This document shows, one piece after another, positions 88 through 9,000 of a DNA stretch of 34,241 nucleotides; the stretch's first letter is position 1, and each line of letters opens with the position of its first letter. Position numbers and translations under genes: made by a program. The notes below the pieces were generated by a model. It worked only from the letters and a program-made list of their open reading frames with translations, made no database searches and had not been told where the DNA came from. Source of the stretch: a bacterium (GTDB lineage Bacteria; Patescibacteriota; Microgenomatia; UBA8517); NCBI GenBank assembly GCA_021824915.1, contig JAKAJP010000022.1, positions 89,832 to 124,072 of the forward strand, in the 5' to 3' direction.

Positions 88-729
88 ATGTTGGAAATAG
101 ATATTTTGACATTATTCCCCGAAATGTTTGATGGACCTTTTCAAGCTTCGATTATTAAAAGGGCTGAAAGTCGTGATCTAATAAAAATTGATGTACACGA
201 TTTGAGAAAGTGGGGGGATGGTGAGCGAAAAAACGTTGACGACAGGCCCTACTCCGGAGGGCCGGGAATGATTTTGAGAGTAGATATAATTGATGCGGCG
301 TTAAAAGACCTAAAAACCAAAAATTCAAAAGTAATACTCTTAGATGCTACGGGGGCCAGATATACACAACAAAAGGCGGTGGAATTGGCAAAAACAAATC
401 ACTTGATTCTGATCGCGGGACACTATGAAGGTGTTGACCATAGAGTTCACGAACATTTGGTTGATGAGGTAATTTCCATCGGCGATTACGTTCTGACGGG
501 CGGAGAAATTCCAGCAATGGTTTTAGTTGATTCAATTATTAGACTCATCCCCGGAGTTTTGGGCAAAGATGAGTCTGCTGTTGACGAATCCCATAAAGAG
601 CCAGGATATCTTGAATATCCGCAATATACCCGTCCGGAAAATTACCATGGTTGGAAGGTTCCGAAAATTCTACTGGGCGGAAACCATGCCGAAATCGAAA
701 AGTGGAGAAAAGAAAAGTCAGGACTTTAG
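88..729 (+). CDS. trmD: tRNA (guanine37-N1)-methyltransferase
   Basis: IDILTLFPEMF, VDDRPYSGGPGM, GHYEGVD, SIGDYVLTGGE and LEYPQYTRP motifs. Start moved to ATG 88 (family N-terminus; -10 TAGAAT at 74-79). Confidence 0.98.
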   Translation: MLEIDILTLFPEMFDGPFQASIIKRAESRDLIKIDVHDLRKWGDGERKNVDDRPYSGGPGMILRVDIIDAALKDLKTKNSKVILLDATGARYTQQKAVELAKTNHLILIAGHYEGVDHRVHEHLVDEVISIGDYVLTGGEIPAMVLVDSIIRLIPGVLGKDESAVDESHKEPGYLEYPQYTRPENYHGWKVPKILLGGNHAEIEKWRKEKSGL

Positions 730-1614
730 CTGAAGAGCAAATTCGTCAATCATCTCACGCCAAGCCTTAAACTTCATATTAAGTTTTTCCTGGGTTTTCT
801 TGGTGGCAAGTCCACCCCAAACAGGTCTTTTATTTCTCTCCGGAGTTTTCAAAAATTCCAATAGCGAAGCTTTTTGGGCTACGTCTTTCACTCCTCGCGC
901 CTTTTCCAAAGCATAACTACCAACTTCAAAATAGGAACCAGTATCGGCGCTTACTATATGAAAATTTCCTTCAAGAGAATCGTCAATAATTTTTGTCAGG
1001 GGATCGGTTATATCATCAACAAAAATTGGAGTAATTATCTGATCTGTAAAAAGCGGAAAGAGATTTTTTTGGTCATAAAGATCTAAAATCTTTCTGATAA
1101 AGTCAGTCTTACCGGAAAACTCCGACCTAAACGGGTTTGCAATTCTTACTATTGCGTGAGGCGTCCCCACATTTGAAACTTCGACCTCACCTCTATTTTT
1201 CGTCCAGCCATACCAGCAAAGATTTTTATTATCATTGGGAAGAATTGTATCCTCATCAAATGGACCCTTTGAATCTTCTAAACCTTCGAAAACAAAATCA
1301 GTCGAAAAATGAATAAAAAACTTTTTATACTCCTTAGAGGCTTCAGCTAAATAACGGGGGGCTAAAACATTTAACTTCCAAGTAATTCCATTTTGATCAC
1401 CTGTTTCCTTTTCTGCACCGGCAACATCTGTATAAGCCGCAAGATTGACCACAACTTCAAACCCACCACCTGAAAAAAAATTCTTGATACTTTCTTTATC
1501 GGTTATATCAATTTGCTGCCGATCAACCGGAATAATATCAAATTTGTCCTTTGCCAACTCAATAAATCTTGAGCCAACTAAACCCGAAGAACCAATAACT
1601 AGGACTTTCTTCAT
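718..1614 (-). CDS. rmlD: dTDP-4-dehydrorhamnose reductase
   Basis: Rossmann GSSGLVG, VNLAAYTDV, HFSTDFVFEG, YxxxK (YGWTK), LFTDQIITP; adjacent to rmlC and rmlB. Confidence 0.92.
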   Translation of the reverse strand: MKKVLVIGSSGLVGSRFIELAKDKFDIIPVDRQQIDITDKESIKNFFSGGGFEVVVNLAAYTDVAGAEKETGDQNGITWKLNVLAPRYLAEASKEYKKFFIHFSTDFVFEGLEDSKGPFDEDTILPNDNKNLCWYGWTKNRGEVEVSNVGTPHAIVRIANPFRSEFSGKTDFIRKILDLYDQKNLFPLFTDQIITPIFVDDITDPLTKIIDDSLEGNFHIVSADTGSYFEVGSYALEKARGVKDVAQKASLLEFLKTPERNKRPVWGGLATKKTQEKLNMKFKAWREMIDEFALQLKS

Positions 1615-2186
1615 TTTTTGAATTTTTCAGGGAAAGCTTCGCGTAATGTAGAATTTTTCTTATCGCGTTCTGAAAGAATTGGGTTGTCTACCGGCCATTT
1701 AATATTCAGGTCGGGGTCGTCCCAAGCAATTCCGCGGGCCTTGGCATCATCCCAATATTCATCGATCAAATAGAAATAATGCATCATCTCCGTTCCCATT
1801 ACACAAATGGAATTTCCTATTCCTCCTGACGGCAAAAACAATGCCTGACGTTTTGTATCTTCCTTAGTGTTATCGATAGTTACGTATTCCACCTTGCCAA
1901 AAGTAGAACTTTCGGGTCTAAGATCAACTATCGGCGCATATAAAATTCCGGTTACCGGATAAATTAACTTATTCCAATTTTCGGTATGAATTGCTTTAAT
2001 GACACCGGGCTTAATATAAGCGTGTGTCCATTGTACGGGACTAAAGCTTACACCAGTTGCCTCTTCCAGCTCTTTTTTGTTGTAAGGTTCATGAACAAAT
2101 CCGCGAGCATCTCCGTGAATTGGTCTTTGTATTAAAACAACACCGGAAATGCCGGTTTTAATAATGTTAGATGATTTGTCAGTCAT
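1611..2186 (-). CDS. rmlC: dTDP-4-dehydrorhamnose 3,5-epimerase
   Basis: HGDARGFVHE, PGVIKAIH (catalytic His), VDLRPESSTFGK, GIAWDDPDLNIKWP, LSERDK. Confidence 0.93.
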   Translation of the reverse strand: MTDKSSNIIKTGISGVVLIQRPIHGDARGFVHEPYNKKELEEATGVSFSPVQWTHAYIKPGVIKAIHTENWNKLIYPVTGILYAPIVDLRPESSTFGKVEYVTIDNTKEDTKRQALFLPSGGIGNSICVMGTEMMHYFYLIDEYWDDAKARGIAWDDPDLNIKWPVDNPILSERDKKNSTLREAFPEKFKK

Positions 2187-4104
2187 TTTTTCTGCTATTC
2201 TCCGAAAGGTTAATCGTATAAATCCCGGACAGAGTTAATCTTGCCATTGCTGCTAAAAAGTAAGAGTCGTCACATTTATTAACCATCTCCGATATCTCAC
2301 CAACTGGCCAAAGAACAATTCCGACATTTTCTTCAAATTTATCTCCAGCCTGGACTTCCGGATATTTCTTCTCCTCAAAATCAACAATTACTGCGTACAA
2401 ATTTGGATGGTTATTCGTCATACCGGTGTCTGGGGAGACTCTACCTAAACTTATTATTTCATTTAACGTAACCCCGTTATTTCTAACATCAAGATTCAAA
2501 TCTCTTTTAAGAGACCTTATTATGAAATCCAAAACGCTTTCATTGAGACGAGGAAAACCTCCGGCCAGGTTATACATAACTCCCCCTGCAGGAAACTTTT
2601 GTTCTCTTTGAAACGCAAAGTGAGTTATTTCCCCCTTTCGCCTGACTAAAACTAAGAGCTTGGCCCCGGATTTAGGTCCCCAACCCCAGGAATAGAACCC
2701 CTCGGAGCGCATTTCTTTTTTATTATCAACGACCTCAAACCAAGTGGCTATGCCATAAATTCCAAACTTTTCTTCTGCGTGAACGATTTTAGTAAGTCTC
2801 AGGATTGTATCCCCCACAAGAGTATCAGCCCTAGCAGCTAAATCCTCCACATATCCAAAAGTTGAGGGATCTAAGGCAAGTTTATCAATCTCCTCCTTAA
2901 TCATACTTGAACTATCCTGATACCATTTCTTTGCCCTCAAATTTTTCATAACAATCTCGTGACGAACCAAATTTTCTTCAACAAAATGTTCTTTTAGATC
3001 ACTTTTCTTGACCTCAGACTTATCTTTTTCTTCAAATCTACCAAATATAAACTTAGTTTTACCTGTTTCCCTATCCAAAGTGATAAAGGCGCTAATTGCA
3101 CGGTTATCATCCGTAATCATGGCACGTCTTTTAAGAAGCGGTCTCCACCAATCCTGATTATTCCTATACCACTTAATGGTTTCCTTCAAACCGTCATCAA
3201 AATTTTCCCGACCGACTTTAGGCTTCCAACCAAGTTCCGTAATAATTTTCGTTGCGTCAATTGCATACCTTCTGTCATTTGAGTGCCTGTCCGGGACATG
3301 TCTTATTTCATCAAGCCCTTTTCCAAATAAAGTAACAACCCGTTCGGCAATATACTTGTTGTCGCGATCATTATTTGAACCAACTAAATATGTTTCCCCT
3401 TTTTTGCCTTTTTCCAAAATCAAATCTATTGCGGAAGCATGATCAGATGTATGAATCCAATCACGGACATTTCGTCCATCACCATGAAGCGGTACACGAA
3501 TTCCGTCAATTAAATTAGTCACCGCAATCGGTATAAATTTTTCAGGAAATTGATAAGGTCCGTAATTATTTGAACAATTTGAGATTGTGATGAACATATC
3601 AGTTTTTTTTGAAAAATCCAAAACGACATTATCCGCCTCTGCTTTACTTAGAGCATATAAATTGTCGGGCCTCGGTGAATAAGGGGTCTTTTCAGTAAAC
3701 TTCTCGTCCGAATTAAGTGGTAACTCTCCATAAACTTCATCCGTTGAAATGTGATGAAATCTGGGAACCTTTAGTTTCACTGCCTCGTCCAAAAGAAGTG
3801 CAGTTCCCCGAACATTTGTCTGCCAGTAACGGGAAGGGTCAAAAATGCTCCTATCGACATGGCTTTCTGCAGCAAAATGAACAATGGCATCCACCCCTTT
3901 AATGGCGTCGTGAACTTTAGCCCTGTCATTGATGTCGGCCTCAAAAAACTTAATCTTTTTGATTATTGGCCGAAGATTTTCAAGATTTCCAGCGTAGGTT
4001 AGCGCATCAATTACCCTGATTTCATCCCCTGGATGCTTTTCCAACCAATAATAAACAAAGTTGGCCCCAATGAAACCTGCCCCGCCCGTAACCAATAGCT
4101 TCAT
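2179..4104 (-). CDS. rmlB: dTDP-glucose 4,6-dehydratase fused to a C-terminal ~313-aa extension containing a degenerate Nudix-like domain
   Basis: N-terminal ~327 aa: TGGAGFIG, HFAAESHVDRSI, STDEVYG, YALSK, NCSNNYGPYQFPEKFIP, RDWIH, WYRNNQDWW. The frame continues without a stop into a region with GGFPRLNESVLDFIIRSLKRDLNL and LGRVSPDTG. Confidence 0.93.
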   Translation of the reverse strand: MKLLVTGGAGFIGANFVYYWLEKHPGDEIRVIDALTYAGNLENLRPIIKKIKFFEADINDRAKVHDAIKGVDAIVHFAAESHVDRSIFDPSRYWQTNVRGTALLLDEAVKLKVPRFHHISTDEVYGELPLNSDEKFTEKTPYSPRPDNLYALSKAEADNVVLDFSKKTDMFITISNCSNNYGPYQFPEKFIPIAVTNLIDGIRVPLHGDGRNVRDWIHTSDHASAIDLILEKGKKGETYLVGSNNDRDNKYIAERVVTLFGKGLDEIRHVPDRHSNDRRYAIDATKIITELGWKPKVGRENFDDGLKETIKWYRNNQDWWRPLLKRRAMITDDNRAISAFITLDRETGKTKFIFGRFEEKDKSEVKKSDLKEHFVEENLVRHEIVMKNLRAKKWYQDSSSMIKEEIDKLALDPSTFGYVEDLAARADTLVGDTILRLTKIVHAEEKFGIYGIATWFEVVDNKKEMRSEGFYSWGWGPKSGAKLLVLVRRKGEITHFAFQREQKFPAGGVMYNLAGGFPRLNESVLDFIIRSLKRDLNLDVRNNGVTLNEIISLGRVSPDTGMTNNHPNLYAVIVDFEEKKYPEVQAGDKFEENVGIVLWPVGEISEMVNKCDDSYFLAAMARLTLSGIYTINLSENSRKND

Positions 4105-4163: not shown

Positions 4164-4646
4164 TTATGTATGCTTGTCAGCAACAGTCGAAGCTCCCCAG
4201 CTTTCAGGCTTGGTCTTAGCGGTATATCCATTACCACTAACCATACCAGTGACCTCCTTTATCATTTCGCGGGTAGCCCCCATTGGTCCCACATCAATGT
4301 GAATTTCAAAATCATATTTTGAAGGTGAGACTTTTTTTCTCAAGAGTGGAACCAATTCCTCCGCCGCCGCCAGAGATAAAAGTGTTTCCGTATAAATCTT
4401 TTCCCTCAAGACAGGCTTTTTGAATTCCTTCCGTTTTTTCCAGAAGTACCTGGCGCCATGCCCTTCTCTATGAACTATCACCGCGGTTACAAAATCAATC
4501 TCATTCTTGCCATTTACCCTCTTGGCCTGTGAATCGCTGCCTATTACTACACGATAAAACTTCCCGGGTTCCTCATCAACAAAATCGGAAATCTGGGAAA
4601 CCATGGCTTCAGGGGTCAACTCTCCCATGGTCGGGCTGTGAAACAT
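4164..4646 (-). CDS. Ribonuclease H-like YkuK-family protein
   Basis: VIGSDSQ, FVTAVIVHREGHGARYFW, EIHIDVG, KPESWGASTVADKHT. Start moved to ATG 4646, 8 nt after TATAAT. Confidence 0.85.
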   Translation of the reverse strand: MFHSPTMGELTPEAMVSQISDFVDEEPGKFYRVVIGSDSQAKRVNGKNEIDFVTAVIVHREGHGARYFWKKRKEFKKPVLREKIYTETLLSLAAAEELVPLLRKKVSPSKYDFEIHIDVGPMGATREMIKEVTGMVSGNGYTAKTKPESWGASTVADKHT

Positions 4647-4687
4647 TTCGCACAATTATACGACTAATTGAGGCTGAGGAGCAATTT

Positions 4688-5584
4688 TTAATCCAACCTG
4701 AGGCTTTTCAGATATTCGCGGAATTTGCCATTCAAATCTTTGTGTTCAAGCGCAAACTCAACAACAGTCTTGAGATATTCAAGCTTGTTTCCTGTATCGT
4801 AGTATTTTCCACCCTTAATCTCTACCGCAACAACCCGCTTTCCATCCTTAAGCATGTGCTTAAGCGCATCGTTATAATACAATTCCTCCCCCTCATCTAA
4901 TTGGTCCAAGACTTCATCTAGATAACTGAAGATGTCGGGTGTAAACAAGAAACCGGAAACATTAGCAAGGTCAGATGGTGCGCTTTCTTTACCGGGTTTC
5001 TCCACAACCGTCTCAACTTCCATAACCCCATCCTCAATCATTTTTCCACCCGTAAATCCATAACGCTTATAGTCCTCATCCTTGGTCGCACGGATGCTTC
5101 CTAAACAGGTACATTCATATTTTTCGTAAGCCTCAATTAGCTGCTTAATCCTACTCTTGGGTTTGGCCATTATAAAATCGTCACTCCATGTATAAATAAA
5201 TGGCTCATCGCCAACCAAGTGGCGCACATTAAGAAGTGGAGTTCCGTTGCCATAAGGTCCTTTTTGCCTGACGTAGACAAAATTTGCCAAGTCGGATATC
5301 TTCTCTACTTCTTCCAAAAGGGGCTTCTTCTTTTCTCCACCCTTCTTTAAGTTTTCGATCAAGTCTAAATTTGGATAATCGAAATGATCCTCAATTGTAC
5401 GCTTATGGTACCCGGTAACAATGATTATGTCCCTAATTCCGGCATCAACGAGCTCTTCGACTACATACTGAATAACTGGTTTATCTACAATCGGAAGCAT
5501 TTCTTTGGGCATAGCCTTGGTCTGGGGAAGAAAACGCGTACCAAAACCCGCTGCGGGGATGACTGCCTTTCTGATCTTTTTCAT
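4688..5584 (-). CDS. galU: UTP--glucose-1-phosphate uridylyltransferase (GalU-type nucleotidyltransferase)
   Basis: KAVIPAAGFGTRFLPQTKAMPKEMLPIVDKPVIQY, VVEKP, YYDTGNKLEYLK. Confidence 0.9.
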   Translation of the reverse strand: MKKIRKAVIPAAGFGTRFLPQTKAMPKEMLPIVDKPVIQYVVEELVDAGIRDIIIVTGYHKRTIEDHFDYPNLDLIENLKKGGEKKKPLLEEVEKISDLANFVYVRQKGPYGNGTPLLNVRHLVGDEPFIYTWSDDFIMAKPKSRIKQLIEAYEKYECTCLGSIRATKDEDYKRYGFTGGKMIEDGVMEVETVVEKPGKESAPSDLANVSGFLFTPDIFSYLDEVLDQLDEGEELYYNDALKHMLKDGKRVVAVEIKGGKYYDTGNKLEYLKTVVEFALEHKDLNGKFREYLKSLRLD

Positions 5585-5608: not shown

Positions 5609-5869
5609 CTAGCCTCTAATGACAAGTGAAAAGAGAATTGTAAGCCCTAAAATTGCAACTGCCAAATATTCAATAAACGTTTCAAAATGCAGATCTTTAT
5701 GCAAAAAATGGTGCATTACCCCCCAAATCACATAAGAGGAAGCTGTGGCAATAGCGACAGCAATCTGAAAACCTTTATCATAAGAAAATAAAGTAAAACC
5801 AATAAATCCGGCAAATAGAATTCCGAAGAGTGTAAGGAAGTGTGGCAAATCTCGGGCGAATTTTTTCAT
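5609..5869 (-). CDS. Small integral membrane protein, 3 predicted TM helices, His-rich loop
   Basis: 86 aa, three hydrophobic stretches, loop MHHFLHKDLH; its ATG directly follows the CAP gene stop. Confidence 0.75.
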   Translation of the reverse strand: MKKFARDLPHFLTLFGILFAGFIGFTLFSYDKGFQIAVAIATASSYVIWGVMHHFLHKDLHFETFIEYLAVAILGLTILFSLVIRG

Positions 5870-6784
5870 TTATATAATACGGCCAGCTTTTAGTATTAAT
5901 ACTACTGCCAAAATCATTCCCAGAAAAGCAATGTGAGCCAGAGTCCTGCCGCCAATCCTTACTATCCTTCTTCTCCTGACTATTATCAAATCGATAGAAA
6001 GAACAGCAAGAAGTAAGCCTGTAACTGCCAGGGAGACGTCCTTTGTGGTCTTAAATGGAGAAACCAAAATACTTGAAGCTGAACCCACCTCCGGAACAGT
6101 AGTGGCCGCTATCGTTGGTTGTGGCGTTGATTGAATCTGTAAAGCGGCAACAGGTACCGGAGAAGGTGAGGGTAGAGTCTGGGCTTTGGCAACAGGAATT
6201 GAGGCTACAGTTTCCCCAGCACGTGCACCAAAAAACTGAACTATTATAGTTGAGTCACTACCGGCCAGATTACCTTGAACCACCCCAATCCCAATTTCCT
6301 TGTAATTTGGTGAGAGAATGTTTTCTTTGTGCGAAGGTGAGTTCATCCAGGCATTAACAGCATCACTTGCCGAACAAAAATCGCGGGCCAAATTTTCACC
6401 GGCAAACGTATATCTATACCCAAAGTTAATAAAAAAACTCCAGGGGCTTGTTCCATCGGGAGCAAAATGTGCCCAATACCCCTTATTCAGCATGTCTGTT
6501 CCTTTGGCTTGAGCCGCCGATGAGAGTGTTGAATTCTCAGATAAGGCATTTAGCCCATTTTGAAGTCTTTGTTCATTGGTTAACCTTATAACCTCTTCCG
6601 GAGAAATGCTTGAGGCGCAACCCAAAACACTTGGAAAAACTTTTGAGGCGCCGGAGATAATAATTTGAGAAAAAATAACAAAAACCGCTATCAACCAAAG
6701 ACTGCTTGAATGCAAAATTTTGGCCTTTTGATTATTGGATTCGTGGGGAAGAAATAAATGAACCAGGGTTTTGACTACCGACAT
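5870..6784 (-). CDS. CAP (SCP/Tpx-1/Ag5/PR-1) domain membrane protein
   Basis: LTNEQRLQNGL, YWAH, AGENLA, WMNSPSHKENIL, YKEIGIG; N-terminal TM, P/S/T linker and two C-terminal TMs. Start moved to ATG 6784, 2 nt after the galE stop. Confidence 0.9.
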   Translation of the reverse strand: MSVVKTLVHLFLPHESNNQKAKILHSSSLWLIAVFVIFSQIIISGASKVFPSVLGCASSISPEEVIRLTNEQRLQNGLNALSENSTLSSAAQAKGTDMLNKGYWAHFAPDGTSPWSFFINFGYRYTFAGENLARDFCSASDAVNAWMNSPSHKENILSPNYKEIGIGVVQGNLAGSDSTIIVQFFGARAGETVASIPVAKAQTLPSPSPVPVAALQIQSTPQPTIAATTVPEVGSASSILVSPFKTTKDVSLAVTGLLLAVLSIDLIIVRRRRIVRIGGRTLAHIAFLGMILAVVLILKAGRII

Positions 6785-6786
6785 TA

Positions 6787-7773
6787 CTATCCATTGTATC
6801 CCTTTGGATGGGTTTTGTGCCAGAGGTAGGCAGACTTCACAATTACCCCAAGATCGTATTTTGGATTCCAAGATAAGCCCGACTTAATTTTATCAATCGA
6901 TGCCCAAAGTTCGTCGGCATCCCCCGGTCGTCTTGATATAAATTTGGCTTTCACTTCCAATCCAGTTTCCTTTTGAATTGCGTCTATTATTTGTTTATTT
7001 GAATAGCCACTGCCCGATCCTGCATTATAAAAATCACTCTTAGCTCCACTAAAGAGAGCATTTAGCGCGAGGGTGTGATTATCCACCAAATCCAAAACAT
7101 GAACATAATCACGGATGCATGTTCTATCGGGAGTATTGTAATCGTCACCAAAAATTTCAACCTCCTCATTATTCAAAGCTTTTTTAATAACATTCGGAAT
7201 TAAATGAGATTCCTCCGGATGGTCTTCGCCAATACTCCCATCCATCGCTGCACCGGCAGCATTAAAATAACGTATACTCATAAACTTTAGGCCATAAGCG
7301 GAATCATAATCCTCAAGCATTCTCTCCATAATGTACTTAGTTTCGCCATAAGGATTTAATGGATTTTTGGGATCATCCTCTTTTATCGGCAGAGTTTTAG
7401 GATTTCCGTAAACACCTGCTGTCGAAGATAAAATTAATTTTAGAACGTTATTCTTGACCATAGAATCTACCAAGTTCATAAAACCGATGACGTTATTTTT
7501 GTAATATTTCGCGGGGTTTTTATACGACTCACCCATTTGGATGAAGCTAGCCATGTGAATTACCCCGTCAAATTTTTCATTTGCGAAAAGCGCACCAACT
7601 TTTTCTTTTTCGCTAACCAAATCTATTTTTTCAAGTCTAAACCCGGAAACTGCTTTTTCGTGACCTTGTGAGAGATTGTCCAAAATTACTGGGTCAAACC
7701 CAACTTCTTTGAGTTTTCGGACCATAAAGGACCCAATATACCCCGCCCCACCTGTAACCAATATCTTAGCCAT
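6787..7773 (-). CDS. galE: UDP-glucose 4-epimerase
   Basis: ILVTGGAGYIGS, LSSTAGVYG, PLNPYGETK, RYFNAAGA, DGTC-like TPDRTCIRDYVHV, RRPGD. Confidence 0.95.
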   Translation of the reverse strand: MAKILVTGGAGYIGSFMVRKLKEVGFDPVILDNLSQGHEKAVSGFRLEKIDLVSEKEKVGALFANEKFDGVIHMASFIQMGESYKNPAKYYKNNVIGFMNLVDSMVKNNVLKLILSSTAGVYGNPKTLPIKEDDPKNPLNPYGETKYIMERMLEDYDSAYGLKFMSIRYFNAAGAAMDGSIGEDHPEESHLIPNVIKKALNNEEVEIFGDDYNTPDRTCIRDYVHVLDLVDNHTLALNALFSGAKSDFYNAGSGSGYSNKQIIDAIQKETGLEVKAKFISRRPGDADELWASIDKIKSGLSWNPKYDLGVIVKSAYLWHKTHPKGYNG

Positions 7774-8195
7774 TAAATTAATTCCATCCTTTCTAGGATC
7801 TCACGAATACTTGCAGGCAATTTTGGAAAAAATTGATAGACAATATAGATCGCAAGCGCGGCCCCAATTGTATCAAAACCAACATCTCTCACACGAGCCT
7901 CCCGACCTTGTGTAAAAAGCTGATGAAACTCATCTGTAGCACCATAAAATGCAGTTAAAGCGACTGCCCAAATTGCAGCCTTTTTTCTTTTCATTCCCTC
8001 ACCGCGAAGAGCTCGATAAATCAGAATTGCCAAAAAACCAAAAAATGTAACATGGGCAAATTTTTTAACTGCAAAATCCTGCCAATAAACAGGTGAAGCA
8101 AGTGGAACCTTACCATTTGAAATCTTAAATATGACTGCCGCCCAAACAATCACCGGCAGCCAATGAAAAAGAAAATTAACGATCTTCGTTTTCAT
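7773..8195 (-). CDS. VanZ-family membrane protein
   Basis: KKFAHVTFFGFL, FYGATDEFHQLFTQGR, DVGFDTIG. Start moved to ATG 8195. Confidence 0.88.
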   Translation of the reverse strand: MKTKIVNFLFHWLPVIVWAAVIFKISNGKVPLASPVYWQDFAVKKFAHVTFFGFLAILIYRALRGEGMKRKKAAIWAVALTAFYGATDEFHQLFTQGREARVRDVGFDTIGAALAIYIVYQFFPKLPASIREILERMELI

Positions 8196-8202
8196 GCAAT
8201 AA

Positions 8203-9000
8203 TTATATCGTATTTTGAGGCAATGTTTCTTTTTGTTTTTTGAAGGCAAGATATCCGGAGAATCCCATCAGAACCACACCCGCACCCACCAAAGTAAAAG
8301 CCAAAACAGGAGATTTACTCTCCGAAACCTCTCGGGAAGAAGGTGAGGCCGTCGGAGTTTTAATATCTTCACTACCCAAAATCGATCCGGAAGATTGCGG
8401 GGTTGAGCTTGGAGATTTCGTCGAGCTCGGCTTTGGAGATGGACTTCTGGTCGGGGTAGGAATTGGAGAAGGGGATTTCGTCGGAGAAGGTGAAGAAGTC
8501 GGTTGTGCAGTTGGATCCGGACTTGGTGAGGAGGTGGGAGAAGGTGAAGAAGTTGGAACTGGAGTCGGGGACGGATTTTCCGAACCCTCGGTTACTTGAG
8601 TAAAAACAACAAAGTTACCAATTCCATTTGGACTTCTCCCAAACGTCCTTGAACCACTAATATCTTGGTCATAGGTAAAACTCTCTCCTGTACAACTTAA
8701 AGAAATAGTATCTCCTGAGTTGTTTAACCAATTTCCTATCCATGCGGATGTGACATCCTTTTTCAACACTCTATATCCCAGCGGTAAAATAATATCGCCC
8801 TCGACAAAAGATATTTGTTGAGTTGCACTTCCCATTGATAGAATGCAACCCGACATTGAAACTTCGGAACTGGATGTATTAAAAAGCTCAACCCATTCAC
8901 CATATGGGCTGACTTCATTTATTACAACCTGAGCAAAAACTTGTGAAGGAAATACCAAAAACAAAACAGCAGCGAACAATAACCAAATAAACTTATTCAT
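8203..9000 (-). CDS. Secreted lamin-tail-domain (LTD) protein with Pro/Ser/Thr linker and C-terminal membrane anchor
   Basis: Signal peptide ending VFA-Q; VVINEV, EWVELFN, LNNSGDTISL, GRSPNG; (TSSPSP)n linker; hydrophobic C-terminus followed by KKQK. Confidence 0.82.
   Translation of the reverse strand: MNKFIWLLFAAVLFLVFPSQVFAQVVINEVSPYGEWVELFNTSSSEVSMSGCILSMGSATQQISFVEGDIILPLGYRVLKKDVTSAWIGNWLNNSGDTISLSCTGESFTYDQDISGSRTFGRSPNGIGNFVVFTQVTEGSENPSPTPVPTSSPSPTSSPSPDPTAQPTSSPSPTKSPSPIPTPTRSPSPKPSSTKSPSSTPQSSGSILGSEDIKTPTASPSSREVSESKSPVLAFTLVGAGVVLMGFSGYLAFKKQKETLPQNTI
8483..8553. repeat. 17-bp direct repeat (ggagaaggtgaagaagt at 8483 and 8537) within the low-complexity PST linker
   Basis: Identical 17-mers 54 bp (18 codons) apart; both encode TSSPSP on the minus strand. 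Confidence 0.8.

Follow-up and report, generated by a model that had tools for sequence, protein, structure and literature searches.

An RmlB-type 4,6-dehydratase fused to a putative decayed Nudix domain in Microgenomates bacteria

Among the closest described systems are the NrtR proteins, whose Nudix domains resemble ADP-ribose pyrophosphatases (ADPRases) and carry perturbed Nudix boxes. These domains bind ADP-ribose and have no appreciable hydrolase activity, and the rate of one of them, Slr1690, rose 600-fold when its signature was restored (PMC2330246). A second precedent concerns the nucleotide pocket of sugar-nucleotide 4,6-dehydratases. In prokaryotic enzymes, a Tyr at the site of DesIV Tyr208 stacks on the thymine ring; eukaryotic UDP-glucose 4,6-dehydratases, T. 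vaginalis UGD among them, have His at this site, and the T. vaginalis enzyme has an approximately 20-fold higher affinity for UDP-glucose than for dTDP-glucose (PMC9741107). The gene described here recalls both precedents. It lies in a stretch of 34,241 nucleotides (nt) from a bacterium of the Patescibacteriota (Microgenomatia; UBA8517; assembly GCA_021824915.1, contig JAKAJP010000022.1, positions 89,832 to 124,072), hereafter called the window, and it encodes an RmlB-type dehydratase that runs on into a long C-terminal extension, to which an earlier note made from the sequence had drawn attention. We favor, at a probability of about 0.5, the reading that one chain combines an intact dehydratase with a nonhydrolytic nucleotide-sugar receptor that would act on the first committed step of its pathway, possibly a UDP-rhamnose pathway. 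The gene and its parts, in window coordinates, are listed below.

2179..4104, minus strand: fusion gene for an NDP-glucose 4,6-dehydratase followed by a hairpin, a linker, and a helical/Nudix module; open frame of 641 amino acids (aa)
3136..4104, minus strand: RmlB-type extended-SDR 4,6-dehydratase, residues 1-323 (TIGR01181, 395.7 bits over residues 2-323)
3484..3486, minus strand: codon of His207, at the site of the thymine-stacking Tyr (DesIV Tyr208), placed by alignment to DesIV (1r66)
3277..3285, minus strand: H274-S275-N276, in place of the P-G-H of the DRPGHDxRY motif, by comparison with RmlB relatives
3037..3123, minus strand: beta-hairpin tail of the dehydratase, residues 328-356 (AFITLDRETGKTKFIFG), with strands at 328-331, 337-344, and 349-356 in the full-length model
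2968..3036, minus strand: charged, variable linker, residues 357-379, with indels, low conservation, and a model confidence (pLDDT) below 50 at 359-377
2830..2967, minus strand: helical N-terminal subdomain of the module, residues 380-425 (W394, L409, F416-G-Y-x-E-D-L422, R425), with helices predicted at 380-424
2224..2814, minus strand: predicted NUDT5/ADPRase-like two-part Nudix fold, residues 431-627 (Foldseek and profile matches)
2491..2559, minus strand: degenerate Nudix box G516-x5-E522-x7-R530-S531-L-K-R534-D535-L-N-L (translation GFPRLNESVLDFIIRSLKRDLNL)

The earlier note had read the RmlB frame as continuing through a methionine at 3120 for about 313 aa, and the frame indeed stays open: after residue 323 it carries on for 318 residues, through M329 (window position 3120), to the stop at 2179. 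M329 is not conserved among relatives and no Shine-Dalgarno-like motif was seen upstream of it; therefore the extension is made within the same chain, and M329 was rejected as an internal start. When residues 328-641 were used as the query, at least 158 clusters (90% identity) were found to share the full-length fusion, with 53-91% identity in the extension. Nearly all of these proteins are 626-644 aa long and have an RmlB domain. They are drawn from NCBI, JGI, ENA, and Logan, on contigs that reach 950 kb, and those that bear names belong mostly to Woesebacteria or Microgenomates. Their source annotation reads only “dTDP-glucose 4,6-dehydratase,” which leaves about half of the chain unannotated. 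The junction (window 2900-3400), where a stop near 3121 would have revealed an assembly artifact, is matched without any difference or indel in Logan contigs assembled independently from four runs in two studies, of mine drainage and soil. When the dehydratase part was the query, all matches of at least 78% identity proved to be fused proteins or fragments thereof on short contigs, and the closest truly unfused RmlBs are at most 58% identical to it.

One relative (L001) is annotated as two genes, of 333 and 299 aa, with the fused frame open across the supposed gap. At positions 5850-6000 of this locus, on a single metagenome contig, a small duplication (…ETVNW / …KTVEW…) throws the reading frame off immediately ahead of WWRPLL, which points to either a chimeric assembly of two strains or a genuine pseudogene. 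The locus was rejected as a true two-gene version since its frameshift stems from this upstream duplication. Several apparent C-terminal-only proteins were also discarded: P0244, P0245, P0248, and P0253 lie on contigs of 1.3-3.7 kb and look like fragments, and P0124 and P0252 both start with RmlB sequence. No member of the extension family was found within 6 kb of the closest genuinely unfused RmlBs (P0263 and Roizmanbacteria P0283). The concern that the fusion might be unique, with intact split orthologs in close relatives, is thus contradicted by the number of fused clusters and by a sole apparent split that is a frameshift. The fusion is real and is not an assembly error.

The identity of the extension was sought at the levels of sequence, profile, and predicted structure. 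No Pfam model matches it in a scan of the window protein, in which the NUDIX gathering score is not reached; an NCBIfam scan of the extension gave only E values of 0.05-0.1, to the Nudix half of NadM-Nudix, and phmmer against the PDB returned chance matches only. A profile of the family searched against the PDB has human NUDT5 as its best match (E = 0.003, across the box), then AraR (E = 0.024), NudF, and MutT. The likeness of this profile to known pyrophosphatases spans the Nudix box and a D-x-G-[LM]-[ST]-N loop. One free-standing relative of the extension, P0138, exceeds the Pfam NUDIX gathering score (30.1 vs. 21.1), and P0151, P0199, and P0130 fall just under it. An AlphaFold2 model of the extension alone has a pLDDT above 80 for most of residues 50-308, and Foldseek matches it to NUDT5 (E = 5e-11), Bd3179, NudE, YffH, and ADPRases at E values from 5e-11 to 1e-7, with a probability of 1.0 and TM scores (normalized to the target) of 0.58-0.75. 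The top 50 Foldseek matches of the extension all belong to the ADP-ribose/NDP-sugar pyrophosphatase group. A Foldseek search with the full-length model recovered SDR structures only; in that model the box lies on the predicted Nudix helix, residues 524-536. The likeness to ADPRase-type Nudix proteins that the earlier note had perceived is therefore upheld by the profile, and the structural comparison it had recommended yields a Nudix match. Profile and model agree in assigning the extension to the Nudix fold, and within it to the ADP-ribose/NDP-sugar pyrophosphatase type, through homology and not chance resemblance.

Not all of the extension belongs to this domain. Of the approximately 313 aa that the earlier note had assigned to the extension, the captured module takes up residues 380-627, and the first 50 or so residues, which comprise the hairpin and the linker, lie outside it. 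The hairpin, whose invariant residues are A339, I341, R345, G348, K349, K351, F352, and F354, likewise ends the unfused 360- to 366-aa RmlBs P0263 and P0261, the former from a partly syntenic locus on a 99-kb contig; therefore it is part of the dehydratase and not of the Nudix module. Beyond the linker, the helical subdomain is common to the free-standing family, whose matches begin near residue 382. The Nudix fold itself would contain an N-terminal sheet, the SWGWGPKSGAK loop, the Nudix core, the LGRxxPDxGMTNN motif, and E591, and the strings that the note had likened to ADPRase-type proteins (GAKLLVLV, QREQKFP, LGRVSPDTG, and DDSYFLAAMARL) are all found in the translation.

The unfused RmlBs that bear the hairpin (L009, positions 2651-3733, and P0261) contain …GHIKINREFGGVKFTE… but keep the usual Tyr and P-x-H motifs. 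Downstream of the RmlB gene in L009 comes TrmD, and rmlC and rmlD are missing there. These proteins look like the prefusion state of the dehydratase.

The box of the window protein and its relatives departs from the hydrolase signature GX5EX7REUXEEXGU, including its three metal-binding Glu: S531, K/R534, D535, and N/G537 stand in place of E, E, E, and G. The loss of metal-binding glutamates that had been read from positions 2559-2491 is exact in translation and is nearly fixed among 53 relatives, with S531 in 51, K or R at 534 in 48, D535 in 50, and G516, E522, and R530 invariant. In free-standing relatives, Glu occupies the three positions in 89%, 74%, and 80% of cases. Most of the rest of the domain has been kept. 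Free-standing members conserve 71 positions, of which the fused clade shares 47 unchanged; at many of the others the substitution is conservative, and the nonconservative substitutions include E531S, E534K, and E535D. The GPxSGxK loop, K482, H495, K503-F504, D559-x-G-M-T-N-N, E591, D613, and R622 are all retained. Across the 53 fused proteins, pairs are on average 68% identical in the Nudix part and 80% in RmlB. This level of identity indicates strong purifying selection on a domain that is devoid of its hydrolase signature.

The dehydratase part scores above the curated equivalog cutoff of TIGR01181 (dTDP-glucose 4,6-dehydratase; 365.1 bits) and is 48% identical to S. suis RmlB (1ker), and the full-length AlphaFold2 model matches RmlB structures in Foldseek at E = 1e-35. 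The NAD motif GxxGxxG (G7-G-A-G-F-I-G13), T121-D122-E123, and Y150-x3-K154 are all found, vary little or not at all among the 53 relatives, and line up with the corresponding residues of RmlB structures. By these marks the dehydratase is predicted to be catalytically intact. Its nucleotide pocket has a different history. The substitutions Y207H, P274H, G275S, and H276N are found in 26 of 26 fused proteins and in none of the 106 nearest unfused RmlBs, in which Tyr occupies position 207 without exception and P, G, and H occupy positions 274-276 in 95%, 94%, and 100%. RmlBs in the PDB read R-x-G-H-D at the HSN site, and the window protein lacks both the thymine-stacking Tyr and the G-H of DRxGHD that are expected of an RmlB. 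The hairpin-only relatives P0263 and P0261 are free of all four substitutions. As judged from these alignments, the pocket of the fused dehydratase is remodeled, and this occurred together with the fusion.

The source of the Nudix module can be traced. An exhaustive phmmer search of 1.84 billion representatives returned 107 relatives, most of which are free-standing, have lengths of 240-300 aa, and align with residues 382-632, approximately, at 25-36% identity. Many have textbook boxes, such as P0151 (G-x5-E-x7-REIDEEIG), P0199, and P0138. E-U-x-E-E is kept in 56 of 88 free-standing members, and a Glu after the box Arg is found in 0 of 25 fused proteins. When 115 domains were placed in one tree, the 25 from fused proteins grouped together as one clade (SH-aLRT 100) among free-standing relatives, on a long stem of 1.13 changes per site. 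The tree places the origin of the fusion in a single event, from a free-standing Nudix family, and, among the relatives recovered by the search, the fusion appears fixed in Woesebacteria and a sister clade. That early-branching fused sister clade (P0123, P0247-P0255) reads R-[QK]-L-x-E-E-L-G, with Asp or Asn at the first of the Glu pair in P0247, P0251, and P0254; the clade of the window protein reads R-S-L-x-K-D-L-[NG]. As reconstructed from these boxes, the fusion came first, the first Glu was lost next, and the other two disappeared last.

Three side observations concern the free-standing family. In a deep clade of 17 free-standing members (SH-aLRT 99; P0140, P0146, P0149, P0159, P0174, P0240, P0243, and others), the Nudix glutamates have been lost independently, for example as EICFHLG and ELKRQLG; therefore pseudo-enzyme states arose at least twice in the family. 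One 571-aa protein (P0126; L008, positions 7001-8716) has a tandem pair of helical and Nudix modules with at least one degenerate box, near a HigB/HTH toxin-antitoxin pair. Five free-standing members that were looked up have no rml genes beside them. Their neighborhoods contain, respectively, EF-Ts and GAPDH; a HigB toxin-antitoxin gene and a methyltransferase; an HD-domain protein; an amidinotransferase; and an ArsR-like HTH protein. Given such unrelated settings, the family at large has no fixed link with rhamnose genes.

The fusion gene itself belongs to a conserved operon that opens with a nucleotidyltransferase gene and continues with the remaining genes of a rhamnose pathway.

4688..5584, minus strand: GalU-type sugar-1-phosphate nucleotidyltransferase, first gene of the conserved operon (TIGR01099 galU 272 bits, vs. 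49 for rmlA and 100 for rmlA_long)
1611..2186, minus strand: RmlC-like 3,5-epimerase (TIGR01221, 1e-31), whose start overlaps the fusion-gene stop by 8 nt
718..1614, minus strand: RmlD-like 4-reductase (TIGR01214, 4.5e-44), with an ATGA overlap with rmlC

The order VanZ, GalE, CAP/YkwD, orf86, GalU-type gene, fusion gene, RmlC, and RmlD, with TrmD convergent, is shared by L001 and L004-L007, and the position of rmlC is conserved in the five loci. No RmlA-type gene is present in the operon. The N-terminal motif GFGTRFLPQTKAMPKEMLP of the nucleotidyltransferase is one that we take to be of the GalU kind. Its gene immediately precedes the fusion gene in L001 and L004-L007; in the window, one extra open reading frame (ORF) separates the two.

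This extra ORF (4164-4655, minus strand) encodes a 163-aa protein of the PF04308 “RNaseH_like” family (DUF458/YkuK) that the five syntenic loci do not have at this place. In L009 a member of this family immediately precedes the nucleotidyltransferase gene, and in Roizmanbacteria L010 and L011 one lies no more than 6 kb from the unfused RmlB; the family may be a recurring neighbor of rml genes in Microgenomates. Three further details of these loci can be recorded. The L004 sequence (CAZWNZ010000003.1) is titled “uncultured Gammaproteobacteria bacterium,” yet its locus is syntenic with those of Woesebacteria and its proteins are 72-82% identical to theirs; the taxonomic label is probably wrong. 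The CAP/YkwD ORF of the window (5870-6871, minus strand; TTG start at 6871) shares 85 nt with the end of GalE (6787-7773, minus strand), and its true start is probably further downstream. Finally, a 265-aa ORF at 8203-9000 (minus strand) has a Lamin Tail Domain (PF00932, 41.5 bits) and sits beside VanZ, upstream of an M23-like/FtsX pair.

In the reading that we favor, the Nudix part would no longer hydrolyze its ligand and would instead bind a nucleotide-sugar of the pathway, as a receptor that needs no metal and in which Lys534 may stand in for the missing Mg2+ beside the diphosphate. The most likely role of such a receptor would be feedback or flux control by the end product. Because the operon opens with a GalU-type enzyme, whose UDP-glucose has other uses, the dehydratase and not the nucleotidyltransferase is the first committed step, and therefore an end-product receptor on the dehydratase would make regulatory sense. 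His207 and the GalU-type partner suggest that the pathway may run on UDP-glucose and yield UDP-L-rhamnose. A bolder version of the proposal, which we hold only tentatively and would not bet on, is that Woesebacteria and the sister clade make UDP-L-rhamnose and not dTDP-L-rhamnose, and that the fused, metal-free pseudo-Nudix domain is a receptor for this end product or for UDP-glucose that sets the activity of the dehydratase allosterically. The suggestion of a pseudo-Nudix nucleotide sensor regulating rhamnose flux had already been made in the earlier note; the Nudix fold and the lost metal ligands favor it, and the binding and the regulation are what we infer.

Several observations weigh against this proposal of a receptor. 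G516, E522, R530, D535, and E591 are kept, and a residual or altered metal site may persist. The sister clade still holds two of the three box glutamates. The GalU-type gene scores under the TIGR01099 cutoff (272 vs. 326.8), the unrelated neighborhoods of the free-standing relatives give no clue to a ligand, and the full-length model has a predicted TM score (pTM) of only 0.70 and does not fix the placement of the Nudix domain relative to the dehydratase active site.

The alternative that survives best, which we nevertheless consider rather unlikely, is that the extension retains catalytic activity, as a nucleotide-sugar pyrophosphatase or glycosyl hydrolase whose metal site is noncanonical (D535, E522, and E591), and clears excess or aberrant NDP-sugars that arise at the dehydratase. 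GDP-mannose mannosyl hydrolase works with an incomplete Nudix box. The conservation of E522, R530, D535, and E591, the E-E pair and box Gly of the sister clade, and the fact that the nearest folds are all active NDP-sugar hydrolases are what such an enzyme would predict. However, none of the 25 fused proteins has the Glu after the Arg, and in the clade of the window protein a Lys or Arg occupies a metal-ligand position. Moreover, a hydrolase tethered to the producer of its own substrate would run a futile cycle, and a perturbed signature in an ADPRase-like protein left a kcat of only about 1e-4 per second (PMC2330246).

Quite unlikely, to our minds, is a purely structural module that binds no small molecule and serves the dehydratase, with RmlC and RmlD, in oligomerization or as a scaffold. 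Dimerization is obligate in ADPRase/NUDT5-type Nudix proteins, and RmlB too forms a dimer. Translational coupling links the rml genes, and C. elegans RML-5 offers an example of a catalytically dead rml-like scaffold (PMC9741107). What a mere scaffold would not lead one to expect is the invariance, in the fused clade, of the pocket-type motifs GPKSGAK, KFP, and DxGMTNN and of E591, nor would it account for accompanying changes in the dehydratase that fall in the nucleotide pocket.

The earlier note had also offered a second catalytic module that acts on the 4-keto-6-deoxy intermediate, such as an EvaA-like 2,3-dehydratase, and diverts it to another deoxysugar. Nudix-fold 2,3-dehydratases do act on dTDP-4-keto-6-deoxyglucose (PMC8987622), and a fusion would set the module beside its substrate. 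Nonetheless, Pfam and NCBIfam models for hexose 2,3-dehydratases find no match, EvaA does not figure in the 50 best structural matches, the extension has a single Nudix core where EvaA has a tandem pair, and RmlC and RmlD come directly after the fusion gene in all loci; we regard this idea as very improbable. An artifact in which two genes were joined by assembly or sequencing error, for which only the two-gene annotation of L001 speaks, can be dismissed given the open frame and small upstream duplication in that locus, the indel-free junction, the many fused clusters from four sources, and the fused or fragmentary nature of every close dehydratase match.

The analysis gives a name, that of a decayed NDP-sugar-type Nudix domain, to the unannotated half of a widely recovered protein, links the fusion to a remodeled dehydratase pocket, and lays out the order of the glutamate losses. 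It also defines the free-standing source family, previously unnamed, which has about 100 clusters at 50% identity, mostly canonical boxes, and no Pfam model. If the domain is a ligand receptor, the protein would be a compact natural case in which a hydrolase has become an allosteric sensor attached to a metabolic enzyme, and it would mark a flux-control point in a rhamnose pathway whose operon is without an RmlA-type gene. Should the bolder version hold, a deoxysugar pathway would be controlled in a new way, and the NrtR-type Nudix sensor would gain its first counterpart tethered to an enzyme. If UDP-sugars are indeed used, the annotation of the operon across the phylum, as to both substrates and product, would be wrong. 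In these reduced bacteria, which probably live attached to hosts, cell-surface glycans have a central biological role.

The earlier note knew of no description of this architecture, and a search of the full-text literature likewise found no published account of an RmlB-Nudix, or dehydratase-Nudix, fusion; the Y207H and HSN pocket changes that travel with the fusion are new here. The protein can nevertheless be placed among its nearest relations. With bacterial RmlB it shares 41-48% full-length identity, a passing TIGR01181 score, the catalytic Thr/Asp/Glu, YxxxK, and the NAD motif, and it differs in having His207, HSN for PGH, the hairpin tail, and a 260-aa Nudix-family module. The eukaryotic UDP-glucose 4,6-dehydratases (T. 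vaginalis UGD and the N-domain of plant RHM) resemble it in the His at the nucleotide-stacking site, to which the GalU-type partner in the window operon can be added, whereas overall the window protein is nearest to bacterial RmlBs, and the eukaryotic systems have a bifunctional UGER where the window has separate RmlC and RmlD genes.

Over about 200 residues, the module has the same predicted fold as NUDT5, E. coli NudE (1vhz/1vhg), the E. coli GDP-mannose hydrolase YffH/NudK (3o61), and the Bdellovibrio NDP-sugar hydrolase (5c7q). Unlike these pyrophosphatases, it has S, K/R, and D for the three Glu of REUxEE, an extra helical subdomain (380-425), a covalent fusion to a dehydratase, and no Pfam NUDIX match. 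EvaA-type NDP-hexose 2,3-dehydratases (4J7G) are likewise members of the Nudix superfamily that act in deoxysugar metabolism without the canonical hydrolase box (PMC8987622), but they show no sequence match or top-50 structural match to the window protein, which has a single core where EvaA has two. A further comparison is with NrtR and Bacteroides AraR (PMC2330246, PMC4666351; PDB 5bs6), in which a decayed ADPRase-like Nudix domain serves as an effector domain that binds ADP-ribose or arabinose. The window protein has the degenerate Nudix domain, has no HTH, and ends at the Nudix fold, and it is not a member of the NrtR group. By analogy, the extension may work like NrtR as a ligand-binding pseudo-enzyme, with a metabolic enzyme as its partner in place of the winged-helix DNA binder that provides the output in those regulators.

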